The translations under genes were made by a program, and so were the position numbers. Below the pieces are notes generated by a model. The model was given only the letters and a program-made list of their open reading frames with translations. It did not search any database and was not told the origin of the DNA. Source: an uncultured Candidatus Saccharibacteria bacterium (GTDB taxonomy: Bacteria > Patescibacteriota > Doudnabacteria > UBA920). Taken from it: a DNA stretch of 64,000 bases. Below, in pieces: positions 10,278 through 61,601 of the stretch. The first letter of the stretch is position 1. Every line of letters starts with the position of its first letter. Location of the stretch: NCBI GenBank assembly GCA_964490395.1, contig CAZBAS010000004.1, forward strand, positions 30,615 to 94,614, read 5' to 3'.

Positions 10278-13034
10278 TTGTTTATGAATTTCATGAAGAT
10301 TAAAAAAGCTGCATCTATAGCAGTGGCACTCTTCCTCCTGGTAGCAACTACCATGGTGGGCGCTGCCCCAGCATTTGCTGCAGGACCAAACCTTATTGCT
10401 AACCCTTCCTTAGAAACCGCAGCAGGAGCCCTTCCTGCGAGCTGGCAAAAAGGTGGATTTGGTACTAACACTACAGTGTTTACCTATCCGGTAGCTGGCG
10501 TTGATGGTGCCAATGCAGCAAAAGTAGCCATGACTGCTCGCACTGGTGGCGATGCAAAATGGTTTTTTAACGATGTAGCTATAACTCCAGGAAAGAGCTA
10601 CACCTTTTCCGATCAGTACAAGTCTACCGTAGCAACCAAGCTTGTGGCTCGCTATACCTCCACCACAAATGTACTCAGCTACATAGACATGGGTAGCGTT
10701 GCTTCTTCTGCAGGCGCATGGAAAACATTTACCTATACATTTACTGCTCCTGCTGGCAGCGCCAAGATGACCGTATTCCACCTTATAGCTGCAGTAGGGG
10801 AACTTACGACCGATGCATATTCTTTAACTGAAAATACTGTTACGCCTCCTACAGATACCACTGCTCCAACTGTTGCCTTAACCGCACCTGCGGCAAATGC
10901 TACTGTGTCTAACACCGTAACCCTCAGCGCTACTGCTTCCGACAATGTTGGTGTAGCAGGCGTGCAATTTATAGTAGATGGCGCAAATGTAGGCGCTGAA
11001 GATACTACTGCTCCATACAGCATTTCTTGGGATTCCAAAACTGTTGCAAACGGCAGCCACACTGTTTCGGCAAAAGGCCGGGATGCTGCAGGGAACACTA
11101 CCACTACAACTCCTATTTCTATAACTGTATCTAATACCGTAACCCCTCCGGCAGATACTACTGCTCCAACGGTTACTCTGACCGCACCAGCTGCAAACGC
11201 AACAGTCACCGGCACTATAAATCTTACTGCTACTGCAACTGATAACGTTGCGGTAACGGGCGTGCAGTTTATAGTAGATGGCGCAAATTTTGGCAGCGAA
11301 CTTACTACAGCTCCATACACTGCTGCGCTCGACACGACTACCTTGACCAATGGTGCTCACACCATAGCGGTAGCAGCGCACGATGCAGCAAACAACTCCA
11401 AAACTACTACTGCTATTTCCGTAACGGTATCTAACACTGTAACCCCTCCAGCAACTAACCTTATTGCTAACCACTCTTTGGAGATGGCAACCGGAAGCCT
11501 GCCTACCAACTGGAGCAAGGGGAGCTGGGGTACAAACAACGCAACATTTACCTACCCAGTAGCTGGCGTAGACGGTACAAAAGCCGCTAAAGTTGCCATG
11601 ACTACGTACACCAATGGCGATGCCAAGTGGTTCTTTGATGATGTTGTCATAACGCCTGGTAAAAACTACACCTTCTCTGAGCAGTACAAGTCTACGGTGC
11701 CAACCACCGTTTTAGCTCGCTACACAAATGCAGATGCAAGCGTGGCATATGTTGAATATGCAAACCTTCCTTCTTCGGGCAACCAGTGGACTACGTTCTC
11801 TCATGAATTTACTGCTCCAGCTGGGGTTGCTAAAGTCACTGTATTCCATTTGCTCTCTGCAGTAGGGGAATTGACCATAGATAACTACACCATGGGTGAC
11901 CAGTCCAACAATACTTCCGCCTTCTTCTCACAGGGTATAGTAAGCTTCACGTTTGATGACGGTTGGATCTCCCACTACGACACTGTACTTCCTATACTCA
12001 ACGCAGCTGGTCTTAAAGGTTCGTTCTACATTATTACTGACCCAATGAACCAGGTGGTAGAGCCGAATAAAGTTCTAAACTCTGGGCTTGAAACAGATAG
12101 CGGCACTGGTACTCCAACCAACTGGACAAAGAGCAGCTGGGGTACGAACAATGCTGCGTTTACCTACCCAACTGCTGGTAAAACAGGCAATGGCGCAAAA
12201 GTTGCCATAACCTCCTACACCGATGGCGATGCAAAATGGTTCTTTGATGACATTGCTATAGTGGCAAATGCTCAGTATCGCTTCCGCGATTCCTACAAGA
12301 GCACAACCCCAACTACACTTACAGCTCGCTTTACCATGGCGGACAATACCGTTGCCTACCGCGACCTGGCAGTCTTGCCAAGCAGCAACAACAACTGGGC
12401 TACTACCGACATACCATTTACTGCTCCTGCAAACGTACAAAGCGTAACCATTTTCCACCACCTCGCAAGCGTAGGCGAACTCACTATAGACGATGCTTCA
12501 CTTACTCTGTACGCCATTTACATGAATCCAAGCCAGGTAAAGGATATGCAAGCAGCGGGACATGAAGTTGGTGGCCACACTAAGACACATCCTGACCTTA
12601 CTACCCTTACCGTACAACAGGCAACCGATGAAATTGTTGGTTCTCGCACTGCGCTTCAGAACATTGGCATAACGGTTAACACCATGGTGTATCCGTACGG
12701 TGCTGCAAACCCAACCATACAGCAGATAACCAAGAACGCAGGATATCTTGCTGCTCGCACGGTTGAAGCTGGGTATAACACTAAAGCAACCGATCACTAT
12801 GCGCTTCGTGTGCAGAACGTAGGTGTTGGTACTACCTTGGCCGATGTGCAAGGTTGGGTAACCACTGCCGCTACTGACCACACCTGGCTCATATTGGTAT
12901 TCCACCAGGTAGACCTGAGTGGCGATACCTATGGCACAACTCCAGCCCTGTTCCAGCAAATGGTAGATTACGTAAAAACTCAACCAGTACAGGTCCGCAC
13001 CATGGACGATGTACGAACAGAGCTCAATCCATAA
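10278..13034 (+). CDS. 918-aa secreted multidomain protein: 3x CBM4/9-like modules, 2x bacterial Ig-like modules and a NodB-type polysaccharide deacetylase (CE4) domain
   Basis: Signal peptide. Three copies of NLIANxSLE...WxKGxWGTNxxxFTYPxAG...AKVAxTxxTxGDAKWFFxDVxIxPGKxYTFS. Two copies of TTAPTVxLTAPAANATV...VQFIVDGAN (Big-like). CE4 motifs TFDDGW and HEVGGHTKTHP, with CBM 3 inserted between them. Confidence 0.7.
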   Translation: MFMNFMKIKKAASIAVALFLLVATTMVGAAPAFAAGPNLIANPSLETAAGALPASWQKGGFGTNTTVFTYPVAGVDGANAAKVAMTARTGGDAKWFFNDVAITPGKSYTFSDQYKSTVATKLVARYTSTTNVLSYIDMGSVASSAGAWKTFTYTFTAPAGSAKMTVFHLIAAVGELTTDAYSLTENTVTPPTDTTAPTVALTAPAANATVSNTVTLSATASDNVGVAGVQFIVDGANVGAEDTTAPYSISWDSKTVANGSHTVSAKGRDAAGNTTTTTPISITVSNTVTPPADTTAPTVTLTAPAANATVTGTINLTATATDNVAVTGVQFIVDGANFGSELTTAPYTAALDTTTLTNGAHTIAVAAHDAANNSKTTTAISVTVSNTVTPPATNLIANHSLEMATGSLPTNWSKGSWGTNNATFTYPVAGVDGTKAAKVAMTTYTNGDAKWFFDDVVITPGKNYTFSEQYKSTVPTTVLARYTNADASVAYVEYANLPSSGNQWTTFSHEFTAPAGVAKVTVFHLLSAVGELTIDNYTMGDQSNNTSAFFSQGIVSFTFDDGWISHYDTVLPILNAAGLKGSFYIITDPMNQVVEPNKVLNSGLETDSGTGTPTNWTKSSWGTNNAAFTYPTAGKTGNGAKVAITSYTDGDAKWFFDDIAIVANAQYRFRDSYKSTTPTTLTARFTMADNTVAYRDLAVLPSSNNNWATTDIPFTAPANVQSVTIFHHLASVGELTIDDASLTLYAIYMNPSQVKDMQAAGHEVGGHTKTHPDLTTLTVQQATDEIVGSRTALQNIGITVNTMVYPYGAANPTIQQITKNAGYLAARTVEAGYNTKATDHYALRVQNVGVGTTLADVQGWVTTAATDHTWLILVFHQVDLSGDTYGTTPALFQQMVDYVKTQPVQVRTMDDVRTELNP

Positions 13035-15854: not shown

Positions 15855-15895
15855 AACGGTTGCCTCTATGGAGCATGTAACATGTAACAAAAGAT

Positions 15896-15928
15896 ACGGA
15901 AAGCTTTGCTTTCCGTATTTTATTTTCT
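15896..15928 (+). terminator. Intrinsic terminator after the LPXTG gene
   Basis: acggaaagc-tttg-ctttccgt followed by attttatttt. Confidence 0.6.
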
Positions 15929-15929
15929 T

Positions 15930-16010
15930 GTTACATGCTTTTTGCTACATGTTACATGTTACATGCTCTACGCTACATGCTCTATGTTACATAGTATGCT
16001 GCATTGCTGT
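15930..16010. repeat. Array of ttacatg/ctacatg heptamer direct repeats
   Basis: tgttacatgctttttgctacatgttacatgttacatgctctacgctacatgctctatgttacat. Inverted copies catgtaacatgtaac lie just upstream of the terminator. Confidence 0.55.
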
Positions 16011-16874: not shown

Positions 16875-16876
16875 CG

Positions 16877-16977
16877 GTCCAAATTTACAAATGTGACAAA
16901 TCTACAAATACCTACTAATCCTGGTTACGTAATTTGTATTATTTGTAGCCATTTGTAGATTTGTCTTATTCGTAGAT
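16877..16977. repeat. Palindromic intergenic repeat, family C, copy 1
   Basis: gacaaatctacaaat and atttgtagatttgtc form a 15-bp perfect inverted repeat. Homologous to 61493..61597. Confidence 0.6.
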
Positions 16978-17700
16978 TTGAACAATATGTTAATAGAAAT
17001 TAAAGACTTAAAAAAAGACTACATAAACGACGAGGTCGTAACTCCGGTTCTCCACGGGGTAAGTTTTGATATAGAAGAAGGGGAGTTTGTGGCCATTATG
17101 GGCCCTTCAGGGAGTGGTAAGTCAACACTCATGCACATTCTTGGTTTTTTGGACCGGTCTACTGGCGGCACATACAAGTTTGAAGGCAAAAATACTACCA
17201 CCTTTACCGATGAAGAGCTGGCGCGCATTCGCAATGAACGTGTCGGGTTTGTGTTCCAGGCGTTTAACTTGCTTGCTAGAACTACGGTACTCGATAACGT
17301 AAAACTGCCACTTATTTATGGTACTAAAAAGAACCAAGATCAACTGGCTAAGAAGGCATTGGAATCTGTGGGCCTGGGTCACCGGTTAGACTTTTATACC
17401 AACCAAATTTCTGGTGGAGAAAAGCAGCGCGTGGCCATTGCTCGGGCCCTGGCTACTGACCCTGCTGTTATATTTGCGGATGAGCCAACGGGAAACCTGG
17501 ACTCAAAGAGCGGTAATACCGTGATGCATATTCTGCAACGTCTGAACGATGAAGGCAAAACCATCATCTTAGTTACTCATGAAATGGACACGGCAGAACA
17601 CGCCAAGCGCCTCATAAAAGTAAAGGACGGAAACATTGTTGCAGATGAAAAAATTAAACACCGAACTATCGCCAAAGCGGAAGGAGAATTAGTTAAGTAG
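16978..17700 (+). CDS. ABC transporter ATP-binding protein, MacB/LolD/FtsE-type
   Basis: Walker [10 protein letters not shown], signature [15 protein letters not shown], Walker [13 protein letters not shown]. Confidence 0.85.
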
Positions 17701-17732
17701 CTTGTAGGAGTTAGGGATTAGGTTGTAGAAGT

Positions 17733-18098
17733 ATGCCAGTAGAATCGTACAAAGATCTAATAGTGTGGCAAAAGTCGATACAACTGGTATTGCTCATTTA
17801 CGAACTGACGGAAAAATTCCCAAAGTCTGAAATATATGGACTTACTTCCCAAATGCGCCGGTGCGCCGTTTCCGTGCCACCGAACATTGCTGAAGGGAGA
17901 AGGCGTAGCACCCGAAAAGAGTTTGGACATTTTGTGAGCATCGCATTTGGCTCAGGCTCAGAATTGGAAACGCAGCTCATCATATGTAAACAATTACCCT
18001 TTGGTGCAAGCTTGGACTATGCACATATTGATTCAATCCTTAGCGAAATTATGAAAATGCTGAACACTCTCCTGGTTAAGCTACAAGCTAATTCATAA
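17733..18098 (+). CDS. Four-helix-bundle protein (23S rRNA intervening-sequence protein family)
   Basis: LIVWQKSIQLVLLIYELTEKFPKSEIYGLTSQMRRCAVSVPPNIAEG matches the family pattern. Inserted between the ABC ATPase and permease genes. Confidence 0.65.
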   Translation: MPVESYKDLIVWQKSIQLVLLIYELTEKFPKSEIYGLTSQMRRCAVSVPPNIAEGRRRSTRKEFGHFVSIAFGSGSELETQLIICKQLPFGASLDYAHIDSILSEIMKMLNTLLVKLQANS

Positions 18099-18115
18099 AT
18101 CCTAATTCCTTTTTT

Positions 18116-19357
18116 GTGAAATTCATCGGTGAAATAAAATTAGTTATCAAAGGTTTGCTGTCCCGCAAAGGACGGTCGTTTTTGACGATTCTGGGAATTG
18201 TGATAGGAGTGGCGGGTGTTATTACTATTATTTCTCTTGGTGCGGGCGCGCAGAGCTTGGTGTTGTCGCAATTAACGTCCCTCGGAAGTAATTTAGTTGG
18301 TATTTTACCGGGCAAATCAAACGAAACAGGGCCTCCAGCGGCTGTGTTTGGGGTGCAAATTACGACTTTAACACTGGACGATGCTCATGCGTTATTAAAT
18401 AACCCAAGACTGCCCCATGTAGCAGCAGTAGCTGCGTTTACAAGAGGTAGCGCTACAGTAGTATGGAGAAACAAAGATGTAGACACGAGCTTTACTGCAA
18501 CAGAAGGCAGCTTACCCGACGTGCAAAACACACCTATTGCAGTAGGGCGGTTTTTTGACGAACGCGAAGAAAGAAGCGGTGCAAATGTTATTGTACTGGG
18601 CTGGGACGTAAAGAATGAGCTTTTTGATACGCAAGACCCCATTGGCCAGGTGGTAAAAATAAAAAACATACCATTTGAAGTAATTGGTGTAACCAAAAAG
18701 CAGGGGACTGTGGCGTTTCAAAACCAGGACGACCAAGTATATATGCCCCTATCCATTGGGCAAAAACAAATTTTAGGAATAAATTACTTGCAGTTTATTC
18801 GCGCGCGCATAGACCAGACTGCGTTTGTAAAGTCCACCATTGCCGACATAGAACAGTTGTTAAAGGAGCGGCATCGTATTCGTACTGAGGCGGAGGTGGA
18901 TTACTCTGTGCGGGATTTAGCAGACGCCATAAAACTGATAGGAAGCATTACAGACGCGCTTAAATATTTTCTTGCGGCCATGGCAGCGCTTAGTCTTGTG
19001 GTAGGGGGCATAGGTATAATGAACATTATGTTGGTTACGGTTGCAGAGCGTACGCGCGAGATAGGCCTGCGTAAGGCCGTGGGCGCCACAAATAAAAATA
19101 TTCGTAATCAATTTTTGCTTGAGTCCAGCACCGTAACGCTGCTTGGCGGCATAGTTGGTATTATTATAGGCTCACTTCTTGCCTATGGTGCTGCGCTGGG
19201 TGCGCGCTACGCCGGCTATACCTGGGACTTTGTTATTTCCCCGGTGTCTATTTTGGTTGCGGTTGGGGTATCGGTTGGAGTAGGGGTCCTCTTTGGTTAC
19301 TACCCCGCCCGCAAGGCCGCAAAACTGAACCCGATTGAAGCGCTAAGGTACGAATAA
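18116..19357 (+). CDS. ABC transporter permease, FtsX/MacB-like
   Basis: N-terminal TM, large extracytoplasmic domain, then 3 C-terminal TM helices with FtsX-like features. Confidence 0.8.
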   Translation: MKFIGEIKLVIKGLLSRKGRSFLTILGIVIGVAGVITIISLGAGAQSLVLSQLTSLGSNLVGILPGKSNETGPPAAVFGVQITTLTLDDAHALLNNPRLPHVAAVAAFTRGSATVVWRNKDVDTSFTATEGSLPDVQNTPIAVGRFFDEREERSGANVIVLGWDVKNELFDTQDPIGQVVKIKNIPFEVIGVTKKQGTVAFQNQDDQVYMPLSIGQKQILGINYLQFIRARIDQTAFVKSTIADIEQLLKERHRIRTEAEVDYSVRDLADAIKLIGSITDALKYFLAAMAALSLVVGGIGIMNIMLVTVAERTREIGLRKAVGATNKNIRNQFLLESSTVTLLGGIVGIIIGSLLAYGAALGARYAGYTWDFVISPVSILVAVGVSVGVGVLFGYYPARKAAKLNPIEALRYE

Positions 19358-19828
19358 GTATCGATGCTAATATACTAATTTACTAATGAATACTAATTAT
19401 ACAAATAAAAACCAAAAGTTAATTTATCCGGAACTCTCTTTTATAATAACTGGGATATGTTTCGATGTTCACAATGCACAAGGGAGGTTTTGCCGAGAAA
19501 AACAATATGCCGATGCAATAGAAATAATATTAAAGGAGCGTCAAATTCCTTATGCAAGAGAGCATAGAGTTGTAGATACAGGCAATGTCATTGATTTCAT
19601 TATTGATGATAGAATTGTCCTAGAACTCAAAGCAAAGAGGCTCATAGAAAAAGACGACTTTTATCAAGTACAACGATATCTGCAGTCTACAAATAAACCA
19701 TTGGGTTTGTTGGTAAACTTTAGAAATCGTTATATAAAACCCATTAGGATTGTCCGAATTGATACGGATGCGCGACAGCGCTTTCTGGATTAGTATCATT
19801 AGTAAATTAGTATATTAGCATCGATACT
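19358..19828 (+). mobile_element. Putative small mobile element: about 38-bp terminal inverted repeats enclosing a single GxxExxY/PD-(D/E)XK gene
   Basis: Left end agtatcgatgctaatatactaatttactaatgaatacta and right end tagtatcattagtaaattagtatattagcatcgatact are reverse complements apart from one indel. Inserted exactly between the stop of one permease gene and the start of the next. Two miniature ORF-less copies occur elsewhere. Confidence 0.55.
19386..19793 (+). CDS. GxxExxY-family protein (PD-(D/E)XK nuclease superfamily)
   Basis: PELSFIITGICFDVHNAQG...YADAIEIILKERQIPYAREHRV...VIDFIIDDRIVLELKAKR...LGLLVNFRN matches the family consensus pattern. Confidence 0.65.
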   Translation: MNTNYTNKNQKLIYPELSFIITGICFDVHNAQGRFCREKQYADAIEIILKERQIPYAREHRVVDTGNVIDFIIDDRIVLELKAKRLIEKDDFYQVQRYLQSTNKPLGLLVNFRNRYIKPIRIVRIDTDARQRFLD

Positions 19829-21079
19829 ATGCGAACAGCATTTAAACAAGCCTACCGAGGCCTCACCATTAACCCAGCACGCACAGCGCTAACCACGCTG
19901 GGTATTGTTATTGGCATTGCTACAGTTATAGTCGTACTGAGTGCGGGTGCAGGTTTTCGCAGCTTTATAAACTATCAAATAGACCAGTTCGGAAGCAATA
20001 CGGTATATATTCAAACGAAAGTACCGCCGAGCACAAAACAACGGGCACGTGGTGGAGGCGGGGCAGACCAGGCTAACCAGGCAGTACAAATTACGACCCT
20101 CAGAAATCGCGACGTAGAAGATGTGGCCCAGCTCAAAGGTGTGGTGGGGACGTATGGAGCGGTCATTGGCCAGAAAGTGGCGAGCTATAAACAAATTAGC
20201 AAGAATGCATTTATATTTGGCTCGAGCGCATCACGGTTCAAAATAGATAAAGGCGCACTCGCCGAGGGTCGCCCTTACTCCGAACAGGAAGATGCTGCTG
20301 CTGACCAGGTAGCCATCCTTGGGGCGGATATAGCAAAAGACTTGTTTGGTAGCGACACGGGTATAGGTAAAACCATTCGGGTAGGGAATCTGAATTTCAT
20401 TGTCATTGGAGTATACGAACGCCGGGGCAGCTTTGGGTTTAGTAACGACGACCAGCAAGTGTTTATCCCGCTGCAAACCGCTCAGAAAAAACTCCTCGGT
20501 ATAGACCACTTACTGTATATGGTTGCGCAGATTGATAGTTCAGATAATACAGCTCCTGTCGCAGAAGATATACGCATCGTACTTCGTCATAACCACGAAA
20601 TAAAAGACCCAGCCAAAGATGACTTTGACGTACAAAACCAAGCGCAGGCTTTGGAGACGTTTAACGTTATTCTCAAAGGTATAACGCTCTTACTTATTGC
20701 AGTGGCGGCCATAAGTTTGCTGGTTGGCGGTGTGGGCATTATGAACATTATGTACGTGGTCGTTACTGAACGCATTTCCGAGATTGGTCTTAAAAAGGCT
20801 CTTGGCGCAACCCCAAATAACATTCTCAGTGAGTTTTTAATAGAAGCAGTACTCCTTACGTTCCTGGGGGGCATTATTGGTATACTACTTGGCGCACTGG
20901 TGTCGTACGGCATTAGCCTTGCCGCAAACGCGTTTGGCTTTGCCTGGGCATTTAGCGTGCCGCTCAGCGGCATTGCCCTGGGTATGGGCGTTTCTGGCGG
21001 CATAGGACTACTCTTTGGCGTATTTCCCGCCCGCCGCGCCGCCAAGCTCGACCCGATGGAAGCCCTCCGCTACGAATAA
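19829..21079 (+). CDS. ABC transporter permease, FtsX/MacB-like (paralogue of 18116..19357)
   Basis: Same architecture as the upstream permease. C-terminal PARRAAKLDPMEALRYE matches the upstream PARKAAKLNPIEALRYE. Confidence 0.8.
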   Translation: MRTAFKQAYRGLTINPARTALTTLGIVIGIATVIVVLSAGAGFRSFINYQIDQFGSNTVYIQTKVPPSTKQRARGGGGADQANQAVQITTLRNRDVEDVAQLKGVVGTYGAVIGQKVASYKQISKNAFIFGSSASRFKIDKGALAEGRPYSEQEDAAADQVAILGADIAKDLFGSDTGIGKTIRVGNLNFIVIGVYERRGSFGFSNDDQQVFIPLQTAQKKLLGIDHLLYMVAQIDSSDNTAPVAEDIRIVLRHNHEIKDPAKDDFDVQNQAQALETFNVILKGITLLLIAVAAISLLVGGVGIMNIMYVVVTERISEIGLKKALGATPNNILSEFLIEAVLLTFLGGIIGILLGALVSYGISLAANAFGFAWAFSVPLSGIALGMGVSGGIGLLFGVFPARRAAKLDPMEALRYE

Positions 21080-21083
21080 CCTC

Positions 21084-21122
21084 CTTGAAAAATAATTTCA
21101 CAATTGTACAAATATTTTTCAA
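21084..21122. repeat. 39-bp inverted repeat, left copy, flanking the 21156..21851 gene
   Basis: cttgaaaaataatttcacaattgtacaaatatttttcaa. Its reverse complement matches 21852..21890 at 37 of 39 positions. Contains overlapping palindromes ttgtacaa and acaattgt. Confidence 0.7.
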
Positions 21123-21155: not shown

Positions 21156-21851
21156 ATGGGTTATACGAAAGTAAATTCAGATGGTACGCAAGCACTCGCT
21201 ACTGTAGTACGTGCGAGTTTGGGGGTCACAGCGCCAGCAAAACCGTTACTATCACCTGAAAGCATTCATGACTTAAAGAGGGTAGGGGAAATTACACTGG
21301 CACTTGTGGCCATGGTCGGTGCAACAGCGCTAACCATTGTGGCGCCGTCAATATGGAGAGCCGTGAGTGTTGCCCAAAAGATATATAAAGCAACCAGGCG
21401 TGCTACGCCGCGACAAAGCCGCACGCTCGCGCAAGCCATCTACTATTTGAAGAAGCGTGGGTATGTGCGCATAGAACCAAATGGCTTGGGGGATTATATT
21501 ATCTCACTGACACATAAAGGCAAAAGTCGTGTAAGCGAGATAGAATTTAATGCCCTACACGTACCAAAACCTACAATATGGGACAAATCTTGGTGGTGCG
21601 TAGCAGGGGACATACCAACCAAAGAACATCGAGCAGGGGCTGACTTGCTTCGCCGCAAGTTAAAACATATGGGTTTTGCTTCGCTGCAACGTAGTATGTG
21701 GTTTTATCCATTTGACCCTCGCAAGGAAATAAATACAATTACTGAAACGTATCACATTGGTAAGTATGTTACCGTTATGCAGGTGGTAAAGATGGACAAG
21801 GACGACGAAGTAGTACTGAAGCGCCATTTTAAAAAACTCAGAATACTGTAG
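21156..21851 (+). CDS. Hypothetical protein, possibly a PaaX-like winged-helix regulator
   Basis: C-terminal WDKSWWCVAGDIPTKEHRAGADLLRRKLKHMGFASLQRSMWFYP resembles the PaaX C-terminal pattern W.G.W.LV...P...R..LR..L...GFG.L..G.W..P. Confidence 0.35.
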   Translation: MGYTKVNSDGTQALATVVRASLGVTAPAKPLLSPESIHDLKRVGEITLALVAMVGATALTIVAPSIWRAVSVAQKIYKATRRATPRQSRTLAQAIYYLKKRGYVRIEPNGLGDYIISLTHKGKSRVSEIEFNALHVPKPTIWDKSWWCVAGDIPTKEHRAGADLLRRKLKHMGFASLQRSMWFYPFDPRKEINTITETYHIGKYVTVMQVVKMDKDDEVVLKRHFKKLRIL

Positions 21852-21890
21852 TTGAAAAATATTTGTACAATTGTGGAATAATTTTTCAAG
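21852..21890. repeat. 39-bp inverted repeat, right copy
   Basis: ttgaaaaatatttgtacaattgtggaataatttttcaag. Confidence 0.7.
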
Positions 21891-22660: not shown

Positions 22661-22687
22661 CAACTGAAGATAAAATTCCAAGGACCA

Positions 22688-22800
22688 CATAACAAATTAC
22701 AAACAAATCCCAATATCGAAATTCAAATTTCCAAAACCAGATATTAGTGCTTAAAATTTGTGATTTATTTGGTACTTGATACTTGTTATTTGGTGCTTTA
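22688..22800. repeat. Intergenic repeat, family D, copy 1
   Basis: taacaaattacaaacaaatcccaatatcgaaattcaaatttccaaaac matches the core at 47596..47710 (taacaaactacaaacaaatcacaactcccaattttccaaac). Confidence 0.45.
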
Positions 22801-23827: not shown

Positions 23828-23914
23828 AATGTCCAATTTCTAATATCTAATTCTTAATGAGTAGGGCAGTCTTTTGTCCTACTTTAGACATTAGAAATTA
23901 GGTATTAGATATTT
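23828..23914. repeat. AT-rich palindromic repeat, family A, copy 1
   Basis: aatgtccaatttctaatatctaattcttaatg ... gacattagaaattaggtattagatattt. Confidence 0.6.
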
Positions 23915-30970: not shown

Positions 30971-31066
30971 GCAGTAAGTGGAAAGCGGAAAACAAAAATC
31001 TGAAAAAAACTAGTCATAAGCTAGCAATTCACTAATAACTATTTACTGTTTACTAGCAAACATTCT

Positions 31067-35367: not shown

Positions 35368-35376
35368 AAGGTAATG

Positions 35377-35492
35377 AATGTCTAATTTCTAATATCTAAT
35401 TCCTAATGTCCAGATACCTTTTTGTCTTTCATCCAACTTCGCTAAAGTTATGTCGGACAAGTTAGACCTTAGAAATTAGGAATTAGATATTT
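35377..35492. repeat. AT-rich palindromic repeat, family A, copy 2
   Basis: aatgtctaatttctaatatctaattcctaatgtcc ... gaccttagaaattaggaattagatattt. Confidence 0.6.
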
Positions 35493-36069: not shown

Positions 36070-36174
36070 TAATTTACAGATACCACATGAATGTCACGAA
36101 TAATTAATCTTAAGCCAAGGGGGCATGTCCGTATTATTCGCATCATTCGGGTGCCATTCGTAGATTCGGGTCGC

Positions 36175-36711: not shown

Positions 36712-36808
36712 GAGTCTCGATGCTAATATACGAATGAATACTAATAATACAAATAAGTGCCAATGTATTGATTCGTATCATTAGTACATTGGTATATTCG
36801 TATCGATA
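36712..36808. mobile_element. Miniature ORF-less copy (MITE-like) of the GxxExxY element family
   Basis: Left arm tctcgatgctaatatacgaatgaatactaataatacaaataag retains ATG AAT ACT AAT.. (MNTN..), the first codons of the GxxExxY gene. Right arm gtatcattagtacattggtatattcgtatcgatact is identical to the right arm at 59050..59082. Confidence 0.55.
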
Positions 36809-37297
36809 CTACCGGTATTGTTCTAGGAGTTCTTTTCCCTGGGTTATATTGTCGAACTTATCAAGTATGAGCGTACCTAGTAGGTGATCTATTTCATGCT
36901 GACACACCCTGGCTATCCAACCATTGTCACTTATGGTTTGTTTTTCGCCGTTCATATCAAAGTACTCAACAGTAATATTTTTTGGTCTGGTAACATTGCC
37001 GAACAGCCCAGGGAGCGAAAGGCACCCTTCTTCTATGGCCGCAGTTTCGGAAGAAGTCTTAACAATTTTTGGATTAATGATAGGGAATACGGGAATACCG
37101 GAATGCTCTAAAAAGATAAGTGCTAAGTTCAAATTTCTACCGACCTGGGGAGCAGCCAGCCCAATGCCATCTGCCTTTATAACCGTATCGAGCATATCGC
37201 GGATAAGGCGTTTAATATCCTTATTCAATGGGAAAACTACATCCTCAACGGGACGTCGTAGTACTTGTGCTGGAAGTTTTACAATAGGGAGAACCAT
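36809..37297 (-). CDS. def: Peptide deformylase
   Basis: GIGLAAPQVG, EGCLSLPG and HEIDHLLG: the three canonical PDF motifs. Confidence 0.9.
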   Translation of the reverse strand: MVLPIVKLPAQVLRRPVEDVVFPLNKDIKRLIRDMLDTVIKADGIGLAAPQVGRNLNLALIFLEHSGIPVFPIINPKIVKTSSETAAIEEGCLSLPGLFGNVTRPKNITVEYFDMNGEKQTISDNGWIARVCQHEIDHLLGTLILDKFDNITQGKELLEQYR

Positions 37298-37385
37298 AAG
37301 TCATGTAAACATATAATCATCTAAACATCTAAGCAGGAATACCGCGCTCATGGGTTCTTGTTTACATGTTTAAATGTTTTTATGC

Positions 37386-38610: not shown

Positions 38611-38617
38611 ACAAAGC

Positions 38618-38703
38618 AATGTCTAAGTTCTAATACCCAATTTCTAACAATCGGAAATTCTACGGTATGTACATTGGACATTGGAAATTAGGTATTAGAC
38701 ATT
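38618..38703. repeat. AT-rich palindromic repeat, family A, copy 3
   Basis: aatgtctaagttctaatacccaatttctaaca ... gacattggaaattaggtattagacatt. Confidence 0.55.
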
Positions 38704-38706
38704 ACT

Positions 38707-47595: not shown

Positions 47596-47710
47596 TATCA
47601 AATAACAAACTACAAACAAATCACAACTCCCAATTTTCCAAACTGAAGAATTCTACAATTGTTTTGAAATTTGGATATTGTTTGTAATTTGGATTTTGTA
47701 CTTTGGAGCT
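47596..47710. repeat. Intergenic repeat, family D, copy 2
   Basis: Shares the acaaa(c/t)tacaaacaaatc(a/c)caa...ccaaa(a/c) core with 22688..22800. Confidence 0.45.
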
Positions 47711-50200: not shown

Positions 50201-50295
50201 ACGTAATCATTTAAACATAAAATCATATAAACATATGAGCATTCAGATCTGCGCGTGTTTATATGCTTGCATGATTATATGTTTATATAGTATTT

Positions 50296-51237: not shown

Positions 51238-51250
51238 AGTATGAAGAAAT

Positions 51251-51346
51251 GCCTAATTCCTAATGTCTAATTTCTAATATCCGGGAATTTCTTATGTCTT
51301 TTGATTAGACATTGGAAATTAGAAATTAGACATTTCCTATAACTTA
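51251..51346. repeat. AT-rich palindromic repeat, family A, copy 4
   Basis: gcctaattcctaatgtctaatttctaatatcc ... gattagacattggaaattagaaattagacattt. Confidence 0.55.
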
Positions 51347-53775: not shown

Positions 53776-53869
53776 AAGAGTTAATAGGTGTCAAATGTTG
53801 TCACGTCTTAACGTCGAACGTCAAAATTCCTGACCTTATGACGTGAAGACCTTATGACGTTTGACTACG

Positions 53870-57719: not shown

Positions 57720-57842
57720 ATACTTGCTAATTTAATTATGACCAACGCTTATATAAACATAAAAACATTTAAACATATAAGCAGGCTATTTCTAGCGCGT
57801 CCTATTGTTTAAATGTTTATATGGTTTCATGCTTAGATGAAG

Positions 57843-58274: not shown

Positions 58275-58425
58275 AGTAGCTTCTAGGTGCTAGGTACTAG
58301 CTTCTAGAATGCAGGTTATAAATGAGACAGGTAGAGAAGCCGAAGGATACCCTTCGCAACCCGAAAAGCTTTTGGCTTTTAGAATTAGCTCCTAGATTTC
58401 TAGAAGCTAACAGCTAGAAGCTATA
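58275..58425. repeat. Palindromic repeat, family E (agcttctag / ctagaagct arms), in the nusG-rplK spacer
   Basis: tagcttctaggtgctaggtactagcttctag ... ctagatttctagaagctaacagctagaagct with a central hairpin cgaagg-ataccc-ttcg. May include the rplK leader. Confidence 0.4.
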
Positions 58426-58427
58426 AG

Positions 58428-58973
58428 CTAACTCTTCTTGACCTGGAGGAAATCTAGTTCAACTGGTGTTTCTCTACCGAAGATGGTAACCATAACCTTT
58501 ACCTTGCCCTTAGATTCATCCAGTTCGCCAATTTTACCTTCGTAGTCTTTAAATGGGCCGTCTACAATTCTGACCAAATCGCCCTTTTGCAAATCAACCT
58601 TAAACTTCGGCTCATCTGCGCCCATTCGTTTCTGAAGGCTTTCCATTTCTTGTGGATCAACTGGTGTTGGGATGGTACCGCTTCCTACGAATCCTGTTAC
58701 GTTAGGGGTATTACGAACCACATACCATGAGTCATCGGTAACAATCATTTCTACCAATACATACCCTGGAAAAATCTTTTCTTCCATGGTAATTCGCTTG
58801 CTGTCTTTTATGCGAATCTTTTTCTCTTTTGGCACCATGACATTGAAGATTTTATCTTCCATGCCCAAATTCTCCACACGTTGCTTGAGGTTTACTGCTA
58901 CAGAATCTTCGTAGCCACTATAGGTATGGAGCACGTACCAGTGACGCTCACCAGTAACTTGTTGTCTAGACAT
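58428..58973 (-). CDS. nusG: Transcription termination/antitermination factor NusG
   Basis: NGN domain (WYVLHTYSGYEDSV) and KOW (GDLVRIVDGPFKDYEGKI). Confidence 0.9.
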   Translation of the reverse strand: MSRQQVTGERHWYVLHTYSGYEDSVAVNLKQRVENLGMEDKIFNVMVPKEKKIRIKDSKRITMEEKIFPGYVLVEMIVTDDSWYVVRNTPNVTGFVGSGTIPTPVDPQEMESLQKRMGADEPKFKVDLQKGDLVRIVDGPFKDYEGKIGELDESKGKVKVMVTIFGRETPVELDFLQVKKS

Positions 58974-58974
58974 A

Positions 58975-59082
58975 ATGTATCGATTCTAATATGCGAATAA
59001 TTACTAATGATACGAATCATGACCAATAGCGCACATGTATTAATTAGTATAATTAGTACATTGGTATATTCGTATCGATACT
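58975..59082. mobile_element. Miniature ORF-less copy (MITE-like) of the GxxExxY element family, in the secE-nusG junction
   Basis: Left arm gtatcgattctaatatgcgaataattactaatgatac. Right arm ttagtacattggtatattcgtatcgatact is identical to the right arm of the 36712 copy. Confidence 0.5.
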
Positions 59083-59083
59083 T

Positions 59084-59278
59084 TTATTTAACTACTATCT
59101 TTTCAAATAACCGCAATAGTCCGTAGTCAGCAGCGCCAAGAATAATGGCAACCAAAAGACAAAATACTATTACTTGCACGGTATAGATAAGGGTCTGCTT
59201 GCGAGTAGGCCAAACAACCTTTTGCATTTCACCATACACGTCTTTAAAAAAACCGGTAACTTTTCTCATATAACGCAT
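59084..59278 (-). CDS. secE: Preprotein translocase subunit SecE
   Basis: 64 aa, single C-terminal TM. WPTRKQTLIYTVQVIV. Sits upstream of nusG. Confidence 0.75.
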   Translation of the reverse strand: MRYMRKVTGFFKDVYGEMQKVVWPTRKQTLIYTVQVIVFCLLVAIILGAADYGLLRLFEKIVVK

Positions 59279-59429: not shown

Positions 59430-61597
<2,168 letters not shown>

Positions 61598-61601
61598 TAA
61601 G

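Follow-up and report, generated by a model that had tools for sequence, protein, structure and literature searches.

Inverted heptad arms around a GxxExxY nuclease gene, and a family of apparently mobile hairpins in operon spacers of CPR bacteria

A 64,000-nucleotide (nt) stretch of DNA from an uncultured Candidatus Saccharibacteria bacterium (contig CAZBAS010000004.1, positions 30,615 to 94,614, the whole of which is called the window below) carries a gene for a GxxExxY protein, a PD-(D/E)XK-type nuclease, enclosed between inverted repeats. The same repeats occur as short hairpins devoid of any open reading frame (ORF), both in the window and in many genomes of the candidate phyla radiation (CPR). 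Sequence comparisons support the conclusion that the ORF-bearing unit and these miniature copies (minis) constitute one mobile family, and its description as a widespread, mobile and selfish foldback family, present in ORF-bearing and mini forms in the spacers of CPR operons, is well supported. Coordinates are positions in the window, and L-numbers denote loci or contigs fetched from other genomes; NusG homologues place the organism among Doudnabacteria-like CPR.

The element and its miniature copies

The full-length element spans 19357-19828. Its arms, 19357-19389 and 19796-19828, are 33 nt long and 100% complementary, and if one bulged A is allowed they lengthen to 19357-19397 (~41 nt) and 19789-19828 (~40 nt), in agreement with the inverted repeats that the original prediction had placed around the GxxExxY gene. 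The start of the ORF lies within the left arm (…CTA ATG AAT ACT AAT…, the ATG of the 19386-19793 ORF) and its stop codon within the innermost right-arm unit (GAT TAG TA…), and the gene is thus flanked by inverted copies of a dispersed hairpin repeat. The element runs from directly behind the TAA of one permease gene to directly before the ATG of the paralogous one and leaves no other spacer sequence, exactly as had been proposed, in an operon with the order ABC ATPase (16978-17700), permease 1, permease 2. The features are:

18116-19357, plus strand: permease 1, MacB/FtsX-type (PF12704 and PF02687), the upstream host gene, with its TAA directly 5' of the element
19357-19397, plus strand: left arm, AGTATCGATGC followed by T[A/G]C-N-AAT-type heptads; holds the ATG of the ORF; 33 nt paired with 19796-19828
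19386-19793, plus strand: GxxExxY / PDDEXK_3 nuclease gene, 135 amino acids (aa), oriented as the ABC operon
19789-19828, plus strand: right arm, ATT-N-GTA heptads followed by GCATCGATACT; holds the TAG of the ORF and adjoins the downstream ATG
19829-21079, plus strand: permease 2, MacB/FtsX-type (PF12704 and PF02687), the downstream host gene
36713-36810, no strand assigned: first mini, a 98-nt hairpin with no ORF, between the peptide deformylase gene (def) and an exonuclease-like gene
58976-59082, no strand assigned: second mini, a 107-nt hairpin with no ORF, which fills the secE-nusG spacer
59084-59278 and 58428-58973: secE and nusG, the genes bordering the second mini

A scan of the window with the arm-end 19-mer (GTATATTMGYATCGATACT), tolerating up to 3 mismatches, gave exactly six matches, corresponding to the two arms of three elements, and zero matches in 100 shuffled sequences. 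All three copies sit between protein-coding genes. The two shorter copies had been reported from the letters alone as sharing the arms but carrying no ORF, one of them in the secE-nusG junction, and both statements hold. The arms of the first mini match the 19-mer with 1 and 0 mismatches, and both minis fold as hairpins, with DNA z-scores of -4.1 (first) and -3.9 (second) and an RNA z-score of -5.7 for the first. It had also been claimed that the minis keep the first codons of the gene (MNTN), which is true of the first mini (ATGAATACTAAT) but not of the second, which has ATGATACGAAT. The first mini shares 88.9% identity with a mini from a metagenome-assembled genome (MAG) that bears the label Saccharibacteria (L057), and 85.6% with one from a Staskawiczbacteria MAG.

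Intrinsic terminators were considered as an explanation of the arms and rejected. With a GC of about 0.30 the arms are rich in A+T; they measure 40 nt and lack a T run, and the elements lie inside operons; the short G+C-rich stem followed by a U tract that marks an ordinary terminator is not there.

Distribution of the family

The exact 19-mer was sought in a scan of one genome per species and was found at 81 loci, as compared with ~17 expected by chance according to our own estimate. About 76 of the 81 loci come from CPR MAGs of many classes (Saccharibacteria, Wolfe-, Taylor-, Lipton-, Staskawicz-, Nealson- and Jorgensenbacteria, Sungiibacteriota and Doudnabacteria), and the arm end is present in about 35 CPR genomes. 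At the CPR loci the 26 nt upstream of the 19-mer seed are likewise conserved. Curated complete elements, in which a left arm is paired with a right arm, number 67 in the fetched loci and the window together: 59 minis (69-119 nt), 7 long elements (434-479 nt) and one of 200 nt. L068 contains one more long element, the eighth. Minis, which retain precisely the conserved motifs of the arms, outnumber full-length copies about 7:1, and the full-length form measures about 435-490 nt.

All eight long elements, although seeded by the arm alone, encode GxxExxY orthologues with the N-terminus MNTN[YD]TN. L046 is a truncated long copy, while the 200-nt copy, L075, retains the first 36 codons of the gene and is, to judge from its sequence, an internal-deletion intermediate. 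Starting from the protein, 860 homologues of the window GxxExxY protein were detected, and the best 120 are 60-75% identical, belong to CPR and are encoded mostly on very short contigs. More than 534 loci in a metagenome scan encode the same GxxExxY subfamily, and ~68 of the 74 metagenomic genes examined bear flanking arms of 35-60 nt of the same family. The original prediction of one family composed of an ORF-bearing unit and its minis is supported, but the family is not specific to this genome: further copies occur in many CPR classes and the family is very large.

Viral contigs scanned for the arm gave no match and hence no support for a phage vector. A gathering-threshold search of the whole window against Rfam matched no family and found no rRNA, and searches for exact matches to the GxxExxY, permease and exonuclease-like proteins of the window found none; the relatives described here were reached via homology searches. 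Within the searched literature, the coverage of which is incomplete, no description of the element was found, and the suggestion that GxxExxY proteins had not been described as cargo of an element with terminal inverted repeats stands to that extent.

Several structural variants were seen. In L010 (4620-4705) and L052 (505-590) the order is permuted, with right-arm and left-arm palindromes fused on GTATCGATAC, and L018 (2440-2700) contains one left arm and four tandem right arms with a period of 43-49 nt. On the side of the downstream gene, N-CGCGAAGCG-ATG frequently follows the element end (L012 628-639, L070 1453-1464, L059 3311-3322, L077 2189-2200), while in one Saccharibacteria MAG CATTT-ATG follows instead. 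GCGAAGC is a very stable DNA mini-hairpin motif. The element may thus bring along a start-codon module.

Evidence for mobility

Empty sites in relatives were sought, as had been recommended, and the permease junction provided one. L092 is a syntenic 84.5-kb contig with ~78% DNA identity to the window and a permease 2 that is 94% identical, in which the two permeases are only 14 nt apart (TAA CCTATCACATATTT ATG); the blastn alignment of the window with L092 breaks exactly at 19357 and 19828. Permease 2 likewise begins 14 nt after permease 1 in L093. The site is filled in L094, a 96%-identical strain, the contig of which starts within the right arm, and L096, a contig of the same species, starts within the secE-nusG mini; in both cases the contig break falls inside an element.

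The secE-nusG spacer is similarly variable:

Window: 110 nt, family mini
L180 (NusG 92%): 137 nt, related mini with different termini
L185 (NusG 91%): 73 nt, unrelated sequence
L183 (NusG 87%): 38 nt, no hairpin

In the nusG-rplK and rplK-band7 spacers the hairpin families also differ between relatives, and orthologous spacers contain other hairpins or none. Minis at separate loci of a single MAG are up to 98-99% identical, and in 28 of 45 cases a mini has its best match in its own genome. Between CPR classes minis are 75-89% identical, and their flanking genes do not align.

Apart from the family, two window spacers of ~95-115 nt (30971-31066 and 22661-22775) are absent in L092, where the genes are 0-25 nt apart; they are not strong hairpins, and the segment 22677-22713 recurs inverted at 47671-47707.

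Placement and orientation

Minis lie between co-directional genes in 46 of 48 assignable cases; on one side they touch the stop codon of the upstream gene (distance -2 to +5), and on the other 0-13 nt separate them from the start codon of the downstream gene. Among the 36 full-length copies for which both neighbours were assigned, 32 have the same orientation as both, and none is antisense between two co-directional genes. Their host gene pairs are diverse, with proteins of 60-75% identity occurring in dozens of unrelated junctions.

The orientation of the minis was called against the ends of 13 full-length copies, and the confident calls comprise 12 sense and 17 antisense minis. Since minis occur in both orientations whereas full-length copies are never antisense, many minis are not in-place deletions of sense copies. 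Either the minis are inserted independently, or full-length copies that enter in the antisense direction soon lose the ORF. The earlier description of the minis as internal-deletion derivatives thus keeps the support of the L075 intermediate and of the shared arms and first codons, but the antisense minis do not fit simple in-place deletion.

Two other explanations bear on this placement. In the first, GxxExxY would be a free-standing homing endonuclease that cuts its own empty intergenic allele and is copied by recombinational repair, with the repeats being incidental. PD-(D/E)XK homing endonucleases such as I-Ssp6803I exist, the gene is small, co-oriented and placed between operon genes near intein-containing genes, and some junctions (pilB-pilC and others) are repeatedly occupied in different metagenomes. 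However, the scatter of related proteins over unrelated junctions leaves no single conserved target site, it is the arms and not the flanks that are conserved, and the ORF-less minis at many sites are left unexplained, which makes homing highly improbable.

In the second, the hairpins would benefit the host, in mRNA processing or stability, in translation coupling or as protein-binding arrays, and the GxxExxY gene would merely have landed in one of them. The extreme conservation of the motif columns across CPR classes, the precise placement at gene boundaries and a CNAAT core common to several window hairpin families would agree with such a role. The spacers of close relatives, which differ or are empty at orthologous positions, indicate on the other hand that no site needs a particular hairpin, and near-identical copies at separate loci of one genome also speak against it. 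GxxExxY genes within arms at hundreds of loci are not an accident, and neither an Rfam family nor the U-tract shape of a terminator was recognized. A host function of this kind is considered unlikely.

Arm architecture

Each arm is composed of four T[A/G]C-N-AAT heptads (ATT-N-GTA in the other arm) and a CGAT-containing terminus, AGTATCGAT[G/A]C. In an alignment of 42 minis (A3), 40-42 of the sequences agree at each fixed base. Compensatory changes are absent from all 27 predicted pairs, and there is no covariation in A3, the paired columns being invariant. The N bases do vary, and are complementary less often than independence would predict (for instance, in 5% of sequences versus 24% expected at one N pair, and in 10% versus 36% expected at another), so that a mismatch breaks the stem every 7-8 nt. 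G.A, T.C and C.C mismatches are fixed in the consensus mini and make it asymmetric.

No signature of an RNA strand was found in the mismatches or in the folding energies of 46 cases: on the transcribed strand G.U-compatible mismatches number 73 and those of A.C type 76, and in just 23 of the 46 the sense strand gives the better fold of the two. The conserved feature is therefore an array of sequence motifs in inverted arrangement and not simply base pairing. The invariant motif bases, the unpaired N positions and the lack of a strand signature together suggest recognition by a sequence-specific factor. The asymmetric consensus with its fixed mismatches suggests that the minis are one proliferating lineage, which spreads in the mini form.

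The GxxExxY protein

The only domain matched by the ORF is PF13366 PDDEXK_3 (72 bits, cut-off 22), and it is also recognized by TIGR04256 GxxExxY (67.2 bits, cut-off 35). Residues D70, E80 and K82 are invariant and form the D...E-x-K catalytic motif of the PD-(D/E)XK fold; this invariant active site indicates that the protein is under selection. The AlphaFold2 model is confident (pLDDT 87) and has a Cas4/restriction-endonuclease-like fold; its disordered parts are the C-terminal tail and residues 1-9, for which the arm supplies the codons. Judging by the invariant residues and the model, the nuclease is probably active. A sequence search of the PDB identified no relative, PADLOC gave marginal matches only (E > 1e-4) and no membership in a defence system, and the one match in PHROGs is to a family of unknown function. 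PF13366/TIGR04256 is a large orphan family without an assigned function (PMC3424549).

Other ORFs in inverted repeats

Inverted repeats of periodic units are also found around other GxxExxY genes. A second GxxExxY subfamily (L084 357-749) has its own inverted repeats of CTAAT/CGAAT units, the gene of Bacteroides finegoldii (L099) is flanked by a 30-nt, 90% inverted repeat of CACAGAGG units, and that of Treponema by a 16-nt, 88% repeat; no convincing flanking repeat was found for the gene on a Fusobacteria plasmid.

The same ABC operon contains an additional unit, inserted between the ATPase and permease 1:

17701-18115, plus strand: sister element, with a four-helix-bundle (23S_rRNA_IVP) ORF at 17733-18098 (PF05635, 125.8 bits) and decayed flanks of TTGTAG/TTAGG units

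The orthologue of this gene in L092 (8334-8733) is enclosed in a clean 24-nt, 92% inverted repeat, and in L045 (5206-5692) a four-helix-bundle gene lies in a 32-nt repeat of AATTTCC units, the arms of which are resembled by the T[CT]CTAAT hairpin family of the window. The four-helix-bundle units look like a sister class of ORF-in-hairpin elements. A nested hairpin around the window's own four-helix-bundle gene was also considered; its inverted repeat is weak and it was rejected on direct reading.

Proposed mechanism and the evidence against it

The explanation that we prefer is that of a selfish mobile foldback family colonizing the spacers of co-transcribed CPR genes. The GxxExxY ORF is probably expressed by read-through transcription, because the gene has no room for a promoter of its own. 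The minis would be non-autonomous derivatives that spread on their own and are mobilized in trans. Least certain are the steps assigned to the nuclease, which might recognize the heptad arrays or the termini as duplex, cruciform or single-strand hairpin DNA and make the initiating cuts, with joining left to host repair or replication. In the transcript the arms probably form a long interrupted stem, which by analogy with rRNA intervening sequences (IVS) would be processed by RNase III. The organism's infrequent use of Shine-Dalgarno sites would make such processing tolerable: a Shine-Dalgarno-like motif precedes only 7 of 61 window genes, and many start codons in the window directly abut hairpin ends, which suggests initiation that is independent of such a motif and perhaps leaderless. 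Taken as a whole, with the nuclease and RNA steps included, this explanation is given a probability of roughly 0.55. The assignment of GxxExxY as the mobilizing nuclease rests on the association of gene and arms.

A number of observations weigh against this explanation. There is a single clean pair of filled and empty sites for the full-length copy, from genomes with no more than 78% identity, and in the filled site the 14-nt spacer seen at the empty one is gone, not interrupted by the element. Target-site duplications, which the original prediction had proposed to look for at each copy, are absent, as no direct repeat of any length flanks the 67 complete elements, and no target motif was found at the insertion sites. 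The arms (89% nt identity among nine full-length copies) are far more conserved than the coding core (64% at the nt and 67% at the protein level), which is likewise compatible with a conserved host factor as the recognizing agent. Heptad hairpins that closely resemble those of the element flank the non-nuclease four-helix-bundle genes of L045, L092 and the window, and the occurrence of two unrelated small-protein families in the same vehicle weakens the inference that the nuclease acts as a transposase. Many other hairpin families of the window have no cognate gene in view, and the hairpin may be a general vehicle with the ORF as its passenger. Finally, a PD-(D/E)XK hydrolase alone is, to our knowledge, incapable of strand transfer.

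In an alternative, the transcribed, RNase III-processed hairpin is itself the unit of function and evolution, as in an IVS: an insulating stem able to reside in rRNA helices or operon spacers, with the ORFs as interchangeable selfish or accessory passengers in its loop. Spread would occur by recombination, natural transformation or a factor encoded elsewhere, and not through GxxExxY. The same architecture is seen in rRNA IVS with or without an ORF, whose terminal stem is 28 base pairs long and which RNase III excises (PMC4990558), and 23S_rRNA_IVP ORFs are located within CPR rRNA insertions (PMC11270868). PF13366 and PF05635 ORFs share the same kind of periodic repeat and even one operon, full-length copies are never antisense, and the replacement of the empty-site spacer in the filled site is what allelic exchange predicts. 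It is opposed by the lack of a strand-specific RNA signature in mismatches and folding, by the absence of compensatory changes and the mismatched N positions, and by the invariant active site of the nuclease. Moreover, the presence of one mini family at many unrelated loci needs transposition, beyond allelic exchange. This alternative is regarded as rather improbable.

The preferred explanation of a mobile foldback family can be extended further. A very widespread, unrecognized class of foldback elements, built of arrays of 7-8-nt units in transcribed spacers of CPR, Bacteroides and spirochaetes, may have as its encoded factors the GxxExxY proteins and, alongside these, the four-helix-bundle "23S rRNA IVS" proteins. 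The rRNA IVS would be a special case of this class; the nuclease would recognize the heptad array, cut the hairpin base and move the element without target-site duplication. This extension is tentative, and somewhat doubtful as a whole.

Comparison with known systems

The element is in several respects similar to the rRNA IVS, which exist in versions with an S23p/23S_rRNA_IVP ORF in Leptospira and Coxiella and as ORF-less segments of ~100 nt in Salmonella and others, and which likewise consist of a terminal-repeat stem with a small ORF in the loop. Both have ORF-bearing (~430-750 nt) and ORF-less (~100 nt) versions, and both are located within a host transcript, occur sporadically, are transferred horizontally and carry an ORF of unknown function (PMC4990558). 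A member of the IVS ORF family is, furthermore, found in a comparable repeat in the same window operon. The GxxExxY element differs in being inserted between protein-coding genes and not in rRNA helices, in encoding a PD-(D/E)XK nuclease and in having arms made of conserved heptad arrays with an unpaired N; RNase III processing is assumed here by analogy.

With repetitive extragenic palindromes (REP), their doublets (REPIN) and the REP-associated tyrosine transposases (RAYT), the element shares a single small enzyme gene between inverted hairpin-forming repeats, scattered ORF-less intergenic doublets of ~100 nt, the lack of target-site duplication and few gene copies per repeat. RAYT (TnpA_REP) is, however, an HUH/Y1 transposase and REP sequences have a conserved GTAG head, in contrast to the PD-(D/E)XK nuclease and heptad array described here, and REPINs are mostly inherited vertically while the GxxExxY family is shared across CPR classes. 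A Wolfebacteria MAG contains a RAYT-like HUH transposase with the PNHFHLLL motif (L071 1464-2297), flanked by REP-like hairpins (ACGAGGTTCAACCTCGT), which shows that classical REP/RAYT systems are also present in CPR. As this genuine RAYT occurs in a genome that also carries the GxxExxY family, the REP/RAYT and GxxExxY systems are distinct.

The minis are also comparable to miniature inverted-repeat transposable elements (MITEs), such as the Correia/NEMIS elements of Neisseria, ERIC and RUP, which are intergenic, 100-150 nt long, multicopy, co-transcribed and hairpin-folding and have terminal inverted repeats. Correia hairpins are RNase III substrates. Classical MITEs are derived from DDE transposons and have target-site duplications (TA for Correia), unlike the present elements, which have none and are associated with a nuclease ORF. 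Of the traits behind the term MITE-like used in the original prediction, the 59 minis with both arms have terminal inverted repeats, a small size, no ORF and many copies. Their termini are those of the GxxExxY-bearing form, but GxxExxY is not a known transposase, and with no target-site duplication and no known transposase class they are not MITEs in the strict sense.

The GxxExxY protein differs from Cas4/RecB-like PD-(D/E)XK nucleases (SSO0001, Pcal_0546) in its size of ~130 aa, in lacking an Fe-S cysteine cluster and in having no CRISPR context. TIGR-Tas guide-RNA arrays, composed of tandem box C/D-like units with a Nop-domain Tas protein, were considered and rejected, as the hairpins are single and dispersed and neither a Tas gene nor an array is found. 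The element lacks a defining feature of each of the three closest systems, namely the rRNA location of the IVS, the HUH enzyme of REPIN/RAYT, and the target-site duplication and known transposase of MITEs.

The orphan GxxExxY family gains from these results a concrete genomic role that can be tested, that of a gene inside conserved arms which are also found as apparently mobile, ORF-less hairpins. Much of the intergenic DNA of the reduced CPR genomes consists of turnover-prone hairpin elements, which affects assembly, through contig breaks, as well as the expression of operons and attempts to infer gene transfer from one CPR class to another. The architecture also links the elements to the rRNA intervening sequences, whose origin and ORF function have been open since 1990.

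Further observations in the window and related loci

Folding of every intergenic spacer of the window revealed ~15 strong, gap-filling hairpins of 76-160 nt, which are built of 7-8-nt units and belong to several families. At least seven families are additional to that of the GxxExxY element, with the units ACAAAT, TYCTAAT, TAAACAT, CTAGAAG, ACGAAT, ACGTC and TTACATG; several share the C-N-AAT core with the GxxExxY element, and they are replaced by others in relatives. Their positions are:

Group 1: 16875-16977, 61485-61601
Group 2: 23837-23912, 35368-35475, 38611-38706, 51238-51336
Group 3: 37298-37385, 50201-50295, 57720-57836
Group 4: 58287-58427
Group 5: 36070-36174
Group 6: 53776-53869
Group 7: 15868-15979

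Two different GxxExxY elements occur together with two intein-containing genes in a DUF2229 / BcrAD_BadFG activase operon (L082-L091, e.g. L084 1-5700), a remarkable accumulation of selfish elements at a locus that over 20 contigs of separate samples contain.

A PaaX-like (PaaX_M) gene (ORF 21156-21851) is enclosed in a 39-nt, 95% inverted repeat (21084-21122 and 21852-21890), the arms of which are themselves palindromes. The arrangement is conserved in L092 and L094 and is also found around a PaaX-like gene in a Wolfebacteria MAG (L049 5761-6566). These repeats may be operator sites or another type of cassette.

The large surface-protein gene at 10278-13034 contains internal tandem repeats with periods of 300 and 1068 nt, and its L092 orthologue contains Big/Ig-like domains.

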